The notes under the pieces were generated by a model that did no database searches, had not been told where the DNA came from, and saw only the letters and a program-made list of their open reading frames with translations. Positions 21,232-25,155 of a stretch of 26,612 nt of DNA are shown here, piece after piece. Made by a program: the position numbers and the translations under genes. The DNA is from a virus. Lineage: Duplodnaviria > Heunggongvirae > Uroviricota > Caudoviricetes. How positions within the stretch are numbered: the first letter of the stretch is position 1; the number at the start of each line of letters is the position of its first letter. The stretch lies in the IMG/VR virus record IMGVR_UViG_2541047923_000008, one strand, 5' to 3'.

Positions 21232-22566
21232 ATGTTTAGCTTAATCATGGCCGGAGAACCGGACGTTTTTGACCGCTGGCCGTGTATGGACCCTGGGCTT
21301 AAAGAAGGCGAGGAAAGATTCTCGATGTCCCGCATGCTGGAAGGCACCCCAAGCGATATTTACAGTAAATTAACACCAATAAGACCCGATACCTTAAGAG
21401 AACTCGCCAAGCTACCAGTATTGTTCATGACCGAAACTTATACAAAAGATGATGAATATGATACAAACAAGTACATCAGGATCAGACTTGGGGAAATAAG
21501 AAACTTACGTAAAGATGGTGGCGATATTTTATTTTCTTTCAAGATTAATCATAATTTTGGAGAAATAACGAATCCCCAAACGACATTATATAAAGAAACC
21601 CTAGGGCTAGGATCTTTCGGGTTAAGTCGTACACATTGGGCAGTAAAAAATAAGGATTTAAATATTGTTCTGGAATCACTTGGTTTAAACAAACAAAATA
21701 GCCAACTGAAAGGTACAATCAAATTAAAAAAACAAACATACCCAGTAGTCGAGAATATTATAGATTATCTTAGTTTCATAAAGAAAAACTTTCGTGATGG
21801 TCTCATTACCTTTTATCGTGGACACTCTAAAAGCTCATATGAGCTTGTCCCCTCTCTTTACAGAAAAAATCAAAACGGGACGTACAGGCATCTTGCTTCA
21901 GAATCTGATTTAGTACGTGAAATACTCAGCGCAAGACCAAATGAATTTAAGGAGGATAAATTTACGATTGATAAACTTGTCCGCATGCAGCATTATGGCT
22001 TGCCTACAAGACTCTTAGACATTACATCTAACCCACTGATAGCATTATATTTTGCTTGCTGTTCGAACCCCGATGAAAACGGACAGGTGATTTCGTTTTC
22101 AACAAATAGAAAGAAAATTAAATATTTCGACTCAGATACAGTGAGCTGTATAGCAAACTTATCACTTTTATCTTACGAAGAGTTGGAAAAATTGTCCTCC
22201 TCTGATTCCAGAAAAGGTAATATGGAGTTATCTGAACTCACGGATAAACTTGCAGACCTTATACAGAATGAAAAATCATATTTCAGAAACAGAATAATTC
22301 CTGATGACTTAAGGAAAGTTGTTTTCCTTAAGGCTAAAATAAATAATGAACGCATACAATCTCAGGCAGGAGCTTTTCTTCTGTTCGGACTTGATCCCAT
22401 TTTACCGGAAACAGATGCTGAGTTTCCTCTTAACAGAGTGGAGATAGCGAACAAAAATAAAATTCTGGAAGAGCTGGCGCAGCTTAATATATCCGAAAGC
22501 ACTGTATATCCCAGCATGGAGAAAACGGCAGCAGAAATTGCAACAAAGTTTTTATCGGTATCATAA
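21232..22566 (+). CDS. FRG-domain protein with an uncharacterised N-terminal domain of about 190 aa; candidate prophage accessory or defence gene
   Basis: 444-aa ORF with AGGAG Shine-Dalgarno 6 nt upstream; contains the FRG-family motifs as I recall them: FYRG (aa 194-197), QHYGLPTRLLD (aa 253-263), NERIQSQAGAF (aa 371-381); AT-rich, opposite strand to the surrounding phage operon. Confidence 0.8.
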   Translation: MFSLIMAGEPDVFDRWPCMDPGLKEGEERFSMSRMLEGTPSDIYSKLTPIRPDTLRELAKLPVLFMTETYTKDDEYDTNKYIRIRLGEIRNLRKDGGDILFSFKINHNFGEITNPQTTLYKETLGLGSFGLSRTHWAVKNKDLNIVLESLGLNKQNSQLKGTIKLKKQTYPVVENIIDYLSFIKKNFRDGLITFYRGHSKSSYELVPSLYRKNQNGTYRHLASESDLVREILSARPNEFKEDKFTIDKLVRMQHYGLPTRLLDITSNPLIALYFACCSNPDENGQVISFSTNRKKIKYFDSDTVSCIANLSLLSYEELEKLSSSDSRKGNMELSELTDKLADLIQNEKSYFRNRIIPDDLRKVVFLKAKINNERIQSQAGAFLLFGLDPILPETDAEFPLNRVEIANKNKILEELAQLNISESTVYPSMEKTAAEIATKFLSVS

Positions 22567-22804: not shown

Positions 22805-23227
22805 TCACTTCAAAAAATACCGAACATCCCCCTGATAAAACGACAATATCCGCTGCATAACTTCGCTTTTACGACACTCAGTACAAATTATATTATGACG
22901 CCTGTCGTAACGACGTATTTCTCCATCAGGTAATGACCAGATAAGGTCCGGATCAACCGCAGATGGTTTCTTCAGCTTTGCCCTTGAGAGCTTTTTACGG
23001 GCATTTTGCCAGTCCTTACGCGCCTGTTCAGACGGGAATAACCCGTAACCAGAGTTGTATACATCGCCACTGGCAACCAGCTCTCTGGCCAGAACGCTCA
23101 TCAGATATCTTGTTGCCCCAGTTTTAGCTTCCAGTTGTCGTAACGTCTCGCGCCCACTCTGGCGTACGAGTTCAAGAACCTGCCCTTTAATTTTTTCCCG
23201 CTCTTCTTGTGTAAAAACTTTTGCCAC
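22805..23227 (-). CDS. Hypothetical protein with a possible winged-helix N-terminus, downstream of the replication gene
   Basis: 140-aa ORF MAKVFTQEEREKIKGQVLELVRQSGRETLRQLEAKTGATRYLMSVLARELV...; C-terminal CTEC; no confident family. Confidence 0.45.
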   Translation of the reverse strand: MAKVFTQEEREKIKGQVLELVRQSGRETLRQLEAKTGATRYLMSVLARELVASGDVYNSGYGLFPSEQARKDWQNARKKLSRAKLKKPSAVDPDLIWSLPDGEIRRYDRRHNIICTECRKSEVMQRILSFYQGDVRYFLK

Positions 23228-23267: not shown

Positions 23268-24344
23268 TTACCCCCTGAAGCCCGGTGGAATTTCGGTATC
23301 CGGTTCAGAAATATGATTCACACAACGCTGGTTGTTCGTACTGCTTACCGGGAGAAACCAGGGGTTTTCAAAATTCCGGTCCGGTCCAAAAAACGTCGTC
23401 GCTCGCTGAACAAATTCCGTTCCCGTTTTCCCGGTAGCCGCCAGGTATCTTGCGTAACGCCTCACACCATCCAGCATGGCCTCTGGTGGCACCCCCTCGC
23501 GTAATCTGGCCTTCCAGGCACTGAAAGCGGATTTCTTCGGGTTTGCCCCAGCACGCAACGGGTATTCCCGCCAGACCTGTTCGAACACATCCGGATAATC
23601 TACTCGTCCCACAGGCTGCCCGGTGTTTTCCGGGACTACCCGATCGGCTTCCCGCTGAATGGCGGAATCGGCTTCAGGCTGCTGCAGTTGGTGTGATTGC
23701 TCCGGCCTTGCGGTCATCACCTGCTGCACAGCGCCCGAATCGGCTTTCAGCGCATACGCTGAATCGGCTTCCGGTGTCGTGCCTGCTGGCTGACCAAGAT
23801 TGACGGTCTGAACATCCCCTGCCTGGTTCGTGGCGTTTTTTACGCCATGGACCATAGTGTTTTGATCTTCTTGATCTGTATCTTTATCTGTATCTTTATC
23901 TGTCGTGACTCGTCGTGACATGTGCGTGACATTTCGTGACGCGCCGTGACAATCGCCATTTTGTTCCCGCTTTCTTTCCCTCTCTCGCTGCGCCCTCTTG
24001 CGCTCTGCAGGAGATTTTGCGGTTTGCGAAATATTGCCGTTGTCCTCTTTAAGCACCTGGCGTTTTTCCCATCCAGTGATTAAATCACCATCAAGTACCC
24101 GCCCCTGCATCGTCTGCAAAATTGAATCAATTACCTCTTCTGTCACGTCGAGCGCACTTGCCAAATCTTCTGTCGTGACATCAATGTGACCTCGCGTGAC
24201 ATTTCGTGACGCGCTCACCAGGAGGTGGATATACACTGCCATCACTGTTGCAATTGGCTGCCCTGACACCCTGGCAATTGTTCGCCACTTAGGGTCATTT
24301 GGCATGTCATGCCATAATCTGAGCCAAGCGTTAGCCATACTCAC
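23268..24344 (-). CDS. Replication initiator / replisome organiser (O-like, YdaU-type) carrying the origin iterons within its coding sequence
   Basis: 358-aa ORF downstream of the cro-like and YdaT-like genes; two clusters of about 10-bp-phased direct repeats inside the gene; low-complexity acidic linker (TDKDTDKDTD). Confidence 0.65.
   Translation of the reverse strand: MSMANAWLRLWHDMPNDPKWRTIARVSGQPIATVMAVYIHLLVSASRNVTRGHIDVTTEDLASALDVTEEVIDSILQTMQGRVLDGDLITGWEKRQVLKEDNGNISQTAKSPAERKRAQRERERKREQNGDCHGASRNVTHMSRRVTTDKDTDKDTDQEDQNTMVHGVKNATNQAGDVQTVNLGQPAGTTPEADSAYALKADSGAVQQVMTARPEQSHQLQQPEADSAIQREADRVVPENTGQPVGRVDYPDVFEQVWREYPLRAGANPKKSAFSAWKARLREGVPPEAMLDGVRRYARYLAATGKTGTEFVQRATTFFGPDRNFENPWFLPVSSTNNQRCVNHISEPDTEIPPGFRG
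23901..23950. repeat. Iteron cluster 1: five phased CGTGAC repeats (candidate ori)
   Basis: tgtCGTGACt cgtCGTGACa tgtgCGTGAC atttCGTGAC gcgcCGTGAC, spacing 10-11 bp. Confidence 0.6.
24143..24210. repeat. Iteron cluster 2: four phased (C)GTGAC repeats plus one inverted copy
   Basis: tgtCGTGACa tcaatGTGAC ctcgCGTGAC atttCGTGAC, with an inverted GTCACG at 24143-24148; GCGTGACATTTCGTGACGCGC is shared exactly with cluster 1. Confidence 0.6.
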
Positions 24345-25084: not shown

Positions 25085-25155
25085 CCAAAAGTTTAATAAT
25101 CAAAACCAAAGAAAGTCAAGAAACAAAACCATCTGTGTTTTAAAATCAAAACATG
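25085..25155. promoter_or_regulatory. oR-type operator/promoter region between cro-like and cI: operator palindrome GTGTTTT-N6-AAAACAT (25135-25154) and candidate pR (-35 TTGACT, -10 TAAACT on the minus strand)
   Basis: 7-6-7 inverted repeat overlapping the cI start codon; additional GTTTTG/CAAAAC half-site-like motifs at about 25088-25130; same palindrome recurs at oL. Confidence 0.5.

Follow-up and report, generated by a model that had tools for sequence, protein, structure and literature searches.

Two separated iteron arrays that share one initiator are known from P1 (incC/incA), F (ori2/incC) and P4 (ori/crr), where one array is placed at the site of unwinding and the second serves an auxiliary or regulatory purpose. 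These arrays flank the rep gene or lie outside it, and their iterons are 19-22 base pairs (bp) long (8 bp in P4). Other origins are embedded in the initiator gene itself. In phage lambda, 19-bp inverted-repeat iterons, four in number (six in Stx phages), form one contiguous block (PMC7466680), and in SPP1 the initiator encoded by gene 38 binds direct repeats of oriL, which lie in that gene and adjoin an AT-rich unwinding element, and has two binding regions (PMC6316719). Here we analyse a locus in IMG/VR virus record IMGVR_UViG_2541047923_000008 (Duplodnaviria; Heunggongvirae; Uroviricota; Caudoviricetes), a stretch of 26,612 nucleotides (nt) that we call the window. A gene on its minus strand, named 'phage replisome organizer' in NCBI records, carries two arrays of a short phased repeat, one in the DNA encoding the N-terminal domain (N array) and the other in the DNA encoding a linker (linker array). 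We propose that these arrays and an adjoining AT-rich run belong to the replication origin of a lambdoid prophage, which is probably written into its own initiator gene. This would be a lambda-like origin-in-gene in a bipartite, loader-less variant, widespread and apparently undescribed; we found no description of the origin of this initiator family in the searchable literature.

The resemblance to ori-lambda (in gene O of lambda, 21 and Stx phages, and gene 18 of P22) is one of layout. The proposed origin also lies within the initiator gene, between the segments encoding the N- and C-terminal domains, and its iterons are followed by an AT-rich region on the 3' side of the gene (PMC7466680). 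It is likewise transcribed from pR after cro and cII, and the N-domain and the origin form one exchangeable specificity module, followed in some relatives by a lambda-P-like loader. Yet, the iterons of the window are 6-bp cores, directly repeated every 10-11 bp in two blocks 223 bp apart, the second array lies inside the region coding for the DNA-binding domain, and the phage has neither a P- nor a DnaC-type loader gene. The description of the gene as O-like, made in an initial annotation of this DNA, thus holds for a functional analogue of lambda O but not for a homologue. We found no match to PF04492, either with the whole protein (E<=0.01) or with the N-domain alone (E<=10), and instead a weak match to PF09681 (E=0.01). 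Phage SPP1 G38P shares with the window protein the annotation name 'replisome organizer', direct repeats with an AT-rich element in its own gene, and two binding regions for one initiator. It differs in that oriR is ~13 kb away, against 223 bp within one gene here (PMC6316719), in that the gene 38 repeats form one mid-gene block, and in that G38P has a dedicated loader, G39P, and helicase, G40P, as partners. Moreover, PF09681 does not match G38P itself at E<=0.01, and its similarity to the window protein is marginal. The difference from the iteron plasmids and P4 is that here both arrays lie within coding sequence, in an integrating lambdoid phage.

The initial annotation had reported five and four repeats with a CGTGAC core, phased at 10-11 bp and about 220 bp apart, a 21-bp sequence common to both clusters, and SRNVT-like peptides encoded by the repeats. 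Re-examination of the positions confirmed these observations (Table 1), with the precision that the fourth copy of the N array is TGTGAC, one mismatch away, and that the gap, from 23951 to 24173, is 223 bp. The 21-mer GCGTGACATTTCGTGACGCGC is exact in each array and has exactly two occurrences, at 23924-23944 and 24194-24214, where 0.01 would be expected. The peptides are ASRNVT, twice, and SRRVT. Both arrays are read as CGTGAC on the antisense strand of the minus-strand gene, the gene-sense motif being GTCACG. The mean spacing is ~10.3 bp, and because the repeats recur every 10-11 bp they should all lie on one face of the helix. Over the whole window and both strands, CGTGAC occurs 19 times against 10.15 +/- 3.15 in shuffled sequences, and none of 100 shuffles reached 19. 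Nine of these 19 copies fall inside 307 bp, where ~0.12 would be expected (Poisson P ~1e-14, calculated from the shuffle counts). The remaining ten copies, outside the initiator gene, match the chance expectation. Hence, a near-palindrome CGTGAC-N-GTCACG at 376-388, far from the initiator gene, is probably a coincidence. We found no DnaA boxes in or near the initiator gene, their total in the window being at chance, and a search for internal promoters gave a single weak consensus match that overlaps the iterons.

Table 1. Coordinates of the features of the initiator gene and of the proposed origin in the window.
Feature	Position	Strand	Remarks
Replication initiator gene ('phage replisome organizer')	23268..24338	-	356 amino acids (aa) from ATG at 24338; phrog_3729; homologue in Tritos
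N-terminal DNA-binding domain (winged helix-turn-helix-like, ~aa 1-95)	24054..24338	-	AlphaFold2 (AF2) model; weak PF09681 match
N-terminal iteron array	24174..24210	-	GTCACG at 24205-24210, 24195-24200 and 24174-24179, degenerate GTCACA at 24185-24190; on + strand exact CGTGAC at 24174, 24195 and 24205, one-mismatch TGTGAC at 24185, spacings 11/10/10 bp; encodes A-S-R-N-V-T-R-G-H-I-D-V-T (helix end and low-confidence loop)
Single inverted hexamer	24142..24147	+	only inverted copy; GTCACG within Asp-Val-Thr codons, 32 bp downstream of N array
Purine-only (coding-strand) tract	23955..24000	-	encodes basic helix RAQRERERKREQ; directly upstream of linker array
Linker iteron array	23904..23950	-	five exact GTCACG (gene sense), spacings 10/10/11/10 bp; on + strand five exact CGTGAC at 23904, 23914, 23925, 23935 and 23945, spacings 10/11/10/10 bp; encodes C-H-G-A-S-R-N-V-T-H-M-S-R-R-V-T in disordered linker
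AT-rich purine-strand hexamer run, ACAGATAAAGATACAGATAAAGATACAGATCAAGAAGATCAAAAC (= TDKDTDKDTDQEDQN)	23856..23903	-	two GATC sites; proposed DNA-unwinding element
Imperfect inverted repeat, 13-bp stem	23824..23854		13 pairs, 7 of them G-C; 5-nt loop; local fold z=-3.0
C-terminal helical domain (proposed partner-recruitment module)	23339..23609	-	model residues 246-335, pLDDT mostly >90
C-terminal 20 residues, QRCVNHISEPDTEIPPGFRG	23271..23330	-	near-copy of the tail of host primosomal protein DnaT

If the arrays are functional they should persist in related genes, and the initial annotation had named repeats absent or unphased in homologous initiator genes as evidence against an origin. We fetched 38 loci, with one genome per species. 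In a de novo, hence unbiased, search for phased hexamers, 33 of 38 genes (the window and 37 relatives) yielded two arrays, placed alike within the gene. When these relatives were pooled with IMG/VR contigs into 82 unique genes, 74 carried both arrays, an array being defined as at least two copies of one hexamer. Repeats and phasing are thus retained in most homologues. For these contigs, the 80 sequences obtained when scanning with the window N-domain were all identical and thus uninformative on copy-number variation, whereas a GAACGC-class query was informative. The 74 genes fall into three motif classes, GTCACG (42), GAACGC (24) and GTAACG (8), and none mixes classes between its arrays. The simplest cause of this concordance would be that one protein reads both arrays. 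The GTCACG class spans Gamma- and Betaproteobacteria, including Escherichia, Serratia, Rahnella, Pseudomonas, Bordetella, Aquitalea, Acidovorax, Chromobacterium and Castellaniella. Its hexamer sits at the same gene positions, nt 128/138/148/159, and again in two to six copies around nt 380-450. Many members also have the inverted copy, at gene nt 191, where the Val codon is GTG in 17/17 genes; it is missing from the other motif classes. Among close relatives the N array has three to six copies (mostly four) and the linker array two to six. Of 103 family representatives, 39 repeat in the linker a four-residue word from the N-array-encoded loop, where 3.0 would be expected. Judging from these comparisons, the bipartite array is a family rule, and the shared 21-mer reflects long-standing concerted evolution and no recent duplication. 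The duplicated or bipartite arrangement, which the initial annotation regarded as unusual, is so relative to lambda but is the norm among these genes. With the two-array layout recurring in relatives across Proteobacteria, the origin very probably has two parts. The family is large, as the N-domain gathers 2239 clusters at 50% identity (E<=1e-3). In two relatives, from Serratia and Pantoea (L036, at ~nt 330-720, and L038), a ~130-aa insertion occupies the part of the linker where the linker iterons would be; phased hexamers were not detected in these two genes. The insertion resembles a GIY-YIG/T5orf172-type domain (PF13455 MUG113, E=6e-4, below threshold).

One might argue that the repeats are simply the by-product of a needed SRNVT-like peptide, with no function at the DNA level. 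In fact, the loop peptide SRNVTRGH is highly conserved in the family and recurs in the linker. Yet, the hexamer is read in three frames, GTC ACG (Val-Thr), nnG TCA CGn (x-Ser-Arg) and nGT CAC Gnn (Cys/Gly-His-x), which yield the unrelated peptides VT, SR and CH/GH; the linker array has examples of all three (GTC ACG, gcG TCA CGa and tGT CAC Gg). The reading frame rotates because the spacings are 10-11 bp, no multiple of three, and both ASRNVTRGHIDVT and CHGASRNVTHMSRRVT arise because one hexamer is read in three frames. Codon usage points in the same direction. In a gap-free codon alignment of 19 non-redundant divergent genes from Gamma- and Betaproteobacteria, the N-array codons GTC, ACG, GGT, CAC, GTC and ACG are each found in 19/19 genes; codon choice inside the array is frozen at four- and six-fold degenerate residues. 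Relative synonymous entropy is 0.14 inside the N array against 0.81 at equally conserved residues elsewhere (p=1.8e-6, Mann-Whitney test), and the conserved residues outside the array (W-H-D-M-P-N-D-P-K-W-R) use synonymous codons almost at random. The use of three frames and the frozen synonymous sites rule out the peptide-repeat explanation for all practical purposes, and we give it hardly any credence. By this codon evidence, the GTCACG repeats are under selection as DNA.

The protein model is in line with this view. We built it with AF2 from a 34-sequence alignment. The N array encodes the end of a helix (residues 31-51) and a loop (50-57) that precedes the helix-turn-helix and is of low confidence, the predicted local distance difference test (pLDDT) score being <50 at residues 50-53. 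The linker (130-245) is predicted to be disordered, with pLDDT <50, and holds both the linker array and the AT-rich run. In the model, therefore, both arrays sit where the protein can accept residues dictated by DNA, again contrary to a requirement for the peptide, and because of this tolerance the SRNVT, CHG and VT peptides may be seen as by-products of the DNA code.

Next to the linker array lies the run in which the initial annotation had seen a Thr-Asp-Lys repeat linker. The codons TDKDTDKDTD are indeed there, as three tandem 12-bp units (23869-23904) adjoining the array, but the segment is better read as DNA, i.e. as a conserved AT-rich motif that is probably the unwinding element. Its GC content is 0.25 at 23860-23899. 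Most relatives analysed have such a run, e.g. (A)GATAAAGATAAAGA or GATACAGATACA, 2-4 nt past the last linker iteron, and in some of them one or two degenerate GTCAC copies precede the (GATAAA/GATACA)n run. The run is AT-rich even in GC-rich hosts, where the AT content of the gene is 0.32-0.35 against 0.58-0.62 locally, and its coding strand is purine-rich. Three relatives (L010, L025 and L032) translate this DNA motif in a different frame, as RLDKRR, and since the motif survives the frame change we regard the run as a DNA-level feature. Its length is hypervariable, from three to more than 13 hexamers among close relatives (IMG/VR L131, L133, L137, L132 and L135). In its behaviour the (GATACA)n/(GATAAA)n run thus resembles a microsatellite prone to slippage, located within an essential gene.

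Directly beyond the AT-rich run there is an imperfect inverted repeat (23824-23854), with a T-run on the plus strand. Lambda has a palindrome at the matching position. Many relatives show a GC-rich hairpin of unrelated sequence at this place, and family-wide the enrichment is weak, with a mean perfect stem of 5.3 against 4.5, a mean z of -0.9 and z<-2 in 12/72. This repeat could possibly be a third origin element or an antisense terminator. On the other side of the linker array, the purine-only tract has an AT skew of -1.0 and a GC skew of -0.55 at 23960-23999, and AF2 predicts a helix (residues 112-129) there, which contains class-discriminating residues.

Which protein reads the arrays? The N-domain is the likely reader, because it is the only constant partner of the arrays and the same motif class spans very different hosts. 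PHROGs assigns the gene full-length to phrog_3729, 'replication initiation protein' (E=1.5e-256). Pfam gave no family for the whole protein at E<=0.01, while the N-terminal 126 aa alone match PF09681 (Phage_rep_org_N) weakly, over profile positions 1-119 of 121 (E=0.01, 16.2 bits against a cutoff of 23.3); at E<=10 the N-domain matched only PF09681 and a fragment of HTH_Crp_2. In the AF2 model this domain covers residues 1-92, with helices at 6-13, 18-27, 31-51, 58-65 and 69-79 and a closing beta hairpin at 83-90; pLDDT is 76-86 outside the loop. Such a helix-helix-helix-loop-helix-helix-beta hairpin order is compatible with a winged-helix fold. One might instead invoke another binder, such as a host factor, Cro or CI, the CII-like protein, or a partition protein whose target would be a centromere-like site. 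ParR-type centromeres, too, typically have short repeats with a 10-11 bp phasing. Still, a host factor is unlikely given that one class extends from Enterobacteriaceae to Betaproteobacteria while several classes coexist within Enterobacterales, and flanking gene families are each limited to 13 of 35 loci or fewer. Furthermore, this is an integrating lambdoid phage without a partition system, none being found in the window, and immunity operators would be expected between cI and cro (25110-25152). We thus hold binding by a protein other than the initiator to be very improbable.

The genomic setting adds to this picture. The initiator gene follows P22-Cro-like and YdaT/CII-like genes in a rightward early operon, with a divergent S24 repressor gene beyond. 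Its position is that of gene O in the lambdoid early-right operon. The protein is 98.9% identical to TRITO_36 of phage Tritos, a prophage of strain LF82 that makes virions and plaques on MG1655 (PMC9928086). Since Tritos carries a nearly identical gene and is active, the initiator module works in a live phage. Of 5426 complete E. coli genomes, 2497 (~46%) contain the initiator DNA. The likely start is ATG 24338 (MANAW..., as in TRITO_36 and the NCBI proteins) and not GTG 24344, although the open reading frame extends over 23268-24344. Neither the interval from the initiator to the Q-antiterminator gene in the window nor that from cI to the DUF968 gene in Tritos contains a gene for a helicase or its loader. 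At five distant loci, a lambda-P-like loader gene (PF06992) follows the initiator, which strengthens the functional parallel with O and P.

Together, the conserved phased arrays, the frozen synonymous sites and the adjoining AT-rich run argue in favour of the suggestion of the initial annotation that the gene contains its own origin, where we infer binding by the initiator. The mechanism might be as follows. Transcription from pR through cro and the cII-like gene would make the initiator, whose N-terminal winged-helix domain would bind the iterons cooperatively along one face of the helix. An initiator oligomer would form on the five sites of the linker array and on the four sites of the N array (plus one inverted site), 223 bp upstream. 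The protein-coated arrays would then interact and loop or wrap the DNA between them, and the resulting strain would melt the adjacent AT-rich run. The C-terminal domain, with a DnaT-like tail, might finally recruit the DnaB-loading machinery of the host; the phage itself encodes neither a helicase nor a loader.

We are far less sure of what the N array specifically does than of the assignment of the origin. The linker array and the AT-rich run could be the whole origin, and the N array a negative-control or autoregulatory site acting by titration, handcuffing or as a roadblock to transcription from pR. Second arrays are control elements in the iteron plasmids P1 and F. The AT-rich run adjoins only the linker array, the distance between the arrays is not helically phased, and whereas the N array keeps a constant copy number (mostly four) and location, the linker array has anything from two to six copies, which suggests different roles. 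In lambda, two iterons and the AT-rich region are enough for unwinding (PMC7466680). On the other hand, copy-number control is of little obvious use to a phage that replicates lytically, and the N array lies >1 kb from pR, hence it is no operator. Sequence does not separate a control array from cooperative looping. We consider the control role to be a real but somewhat unlikely alternative, and still favour an origin in which both arrays take part.

Several points speak against the bipartite origin as we propose it. We infer initiator binding, unwinding of the AT-rich run and origin firing from sequence. The distance between arrays ranges from 189 to 350 bp among relatives with no strict helical phasing, and a rigid loop predicts otherwise. 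Co-inheritance of the N array with the N-domain is trivial, because the former lies inside the DNA encoding the latter, and only concordance with the separate linker array is informative. The AF2 model has low overall confidence (mean pLDDT 61, predicted template modelling score 0.30), the disordered linker dominating it, and a Foldseek search of the PDB with the whole model found no significant neighbour, none having E<1; the best matches, winged-helix and sigma-region-4 proteins, all had E>1. No small plasmid uses the initiator gene as its replicon, and the 11 plasmid records with the gene are large plasmids with phage DNA, mislabelled chromosomes and ~51-kb Pseudomonas elements. Finally, we found no function for the extreme C-terminal tail of DnaT, including in a 2026 preprimosome paper.

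The tail of the window protein may bear on how a loader-less initiator would work. The last 20 residues of the protein, QRCVNHISEPDTEIPPGFRG, are identical to residues 160-179 of E. coli DnaT at 14 of 20 positions, as counted from an alignment of phmmer against the PDB, and end in IPPGFRG. With the NCBIfam DnaT equivalog there is a tail match (positions 157-179, E=0.002), and the window protein has the DnaT tail pattern ...VSEPDxxIPPGFRG. The ending I-P-x-G-F-R-G recurs in several relatives whose C-domains are unrelated. The tail looks to be a short motif for recruitment borrowed from the restart primosome, and a loader-less initiator that mimics DnaT is, from its sequence, an attractive idea. 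The likeness to DnaT goes further in many relatives with the same N-domain, which carry the DnaT-like single-stranded-DNA-binding domain PF17948. The window protein, unlike DnaT, lacks PF17948 in Pfam, and its C-terminal helical domain is of a different fold family. We also obtained a match to the DnaT C-domain with a family-alignment profile against the PDB, but we discounted it for the window protein since the alignment includes relatives with true PF17948 domains. Only the match of the 20-residue tail holds for the window protein alone.

C-domains exchange freely downstream of the AT-rich run, and relatives with the same N-domain carry others. The one of the window is common to SfV orf39 and to the 'O' proteins of some Stx phages (~51% identity). 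In eight relatives (L007, L008, L012, L014, L015, L021, L024 and L025) the motif CCCCC(C)...CCCCC(C)-N-GGGGG lies 30-60 nt past the AT-rich run, at the junction of linker and C-domain. It encodes PPL-PP-RG and occurs with one type of C-domain. It could be a protein motif, a hairpin or a recombination joint for C-domain swaps.

One might also speculate that iteron DNA and the peptide that reads it are one and the same sequence, the loop encoded by the N array being the specificity determinant. The columns that discriminate the GTCACG and GAACGC classes fall only in the loop (aa 49, 50 and 53), in the basic helix (aa 109-119) and in the linker, and none lies in the helices of the winged-helix domain or in the wing. 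The loops of the two classes, SRNVTRGH (GTCACG) and SNATERGRTQ (GAACGC), are rich in Arg, Asn, Thr, His and Gln. However, the pattern of these columns is confounded by phylogeny, and from sequence comparison we see this idea as rather unlikely. If it were true, each specificity class would be a self-referential unit in which a change in the iterons automatically rewrites the recognition peptide. This would provide a built-in route to new origin specificities and account for the need to have an array within the DNA-binding domain.

If the reading of the locus as an origin is correct, the origin is thereby identified for a very common group of lambdoid prophages, among them the active Tritos of the Crohn's-associated strain LF82. 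The three motif classes would then be natural specificity classes in which to study the co-evolution of initiators and origins. The gene would be a clean case of overlapping protein and DNA codes, open to synonymous recoding. The locus would also represent a lambdoid replication module without helicase loader, which may tap the restart primosome of the host through its mimic of the DnaT tail. In practice, prophage origins could be called by a simple signature, a (GATAAA)n run after phased hexamers located at nt ~130 and ~390 of the gene.

Other genes of the window deserve brief mention. The gene next to the initiator (22805-23227, minus strand) occupies the usual lambdoid slot of the helicase loader and encodes a DUF977 protein, phrog_142 'Ren-like exclusion protein'. 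A gene on the opposite strand (21232-22566, plus strand), in the interval that separates the replication region from the nin-like one, has a 444-aa product with an FRG domain (PF08867, E=2.6e-22); it has the appearance of a moron and may serve in defence. TRITO_38 of Tritos, annotated as hypothetical, has the same length and relative position. Finally, the late or lysis-proximal part of the prophage carries an inserted IS110-family transposase (PF01548 and PF02371; 14349-15482, plus strand).

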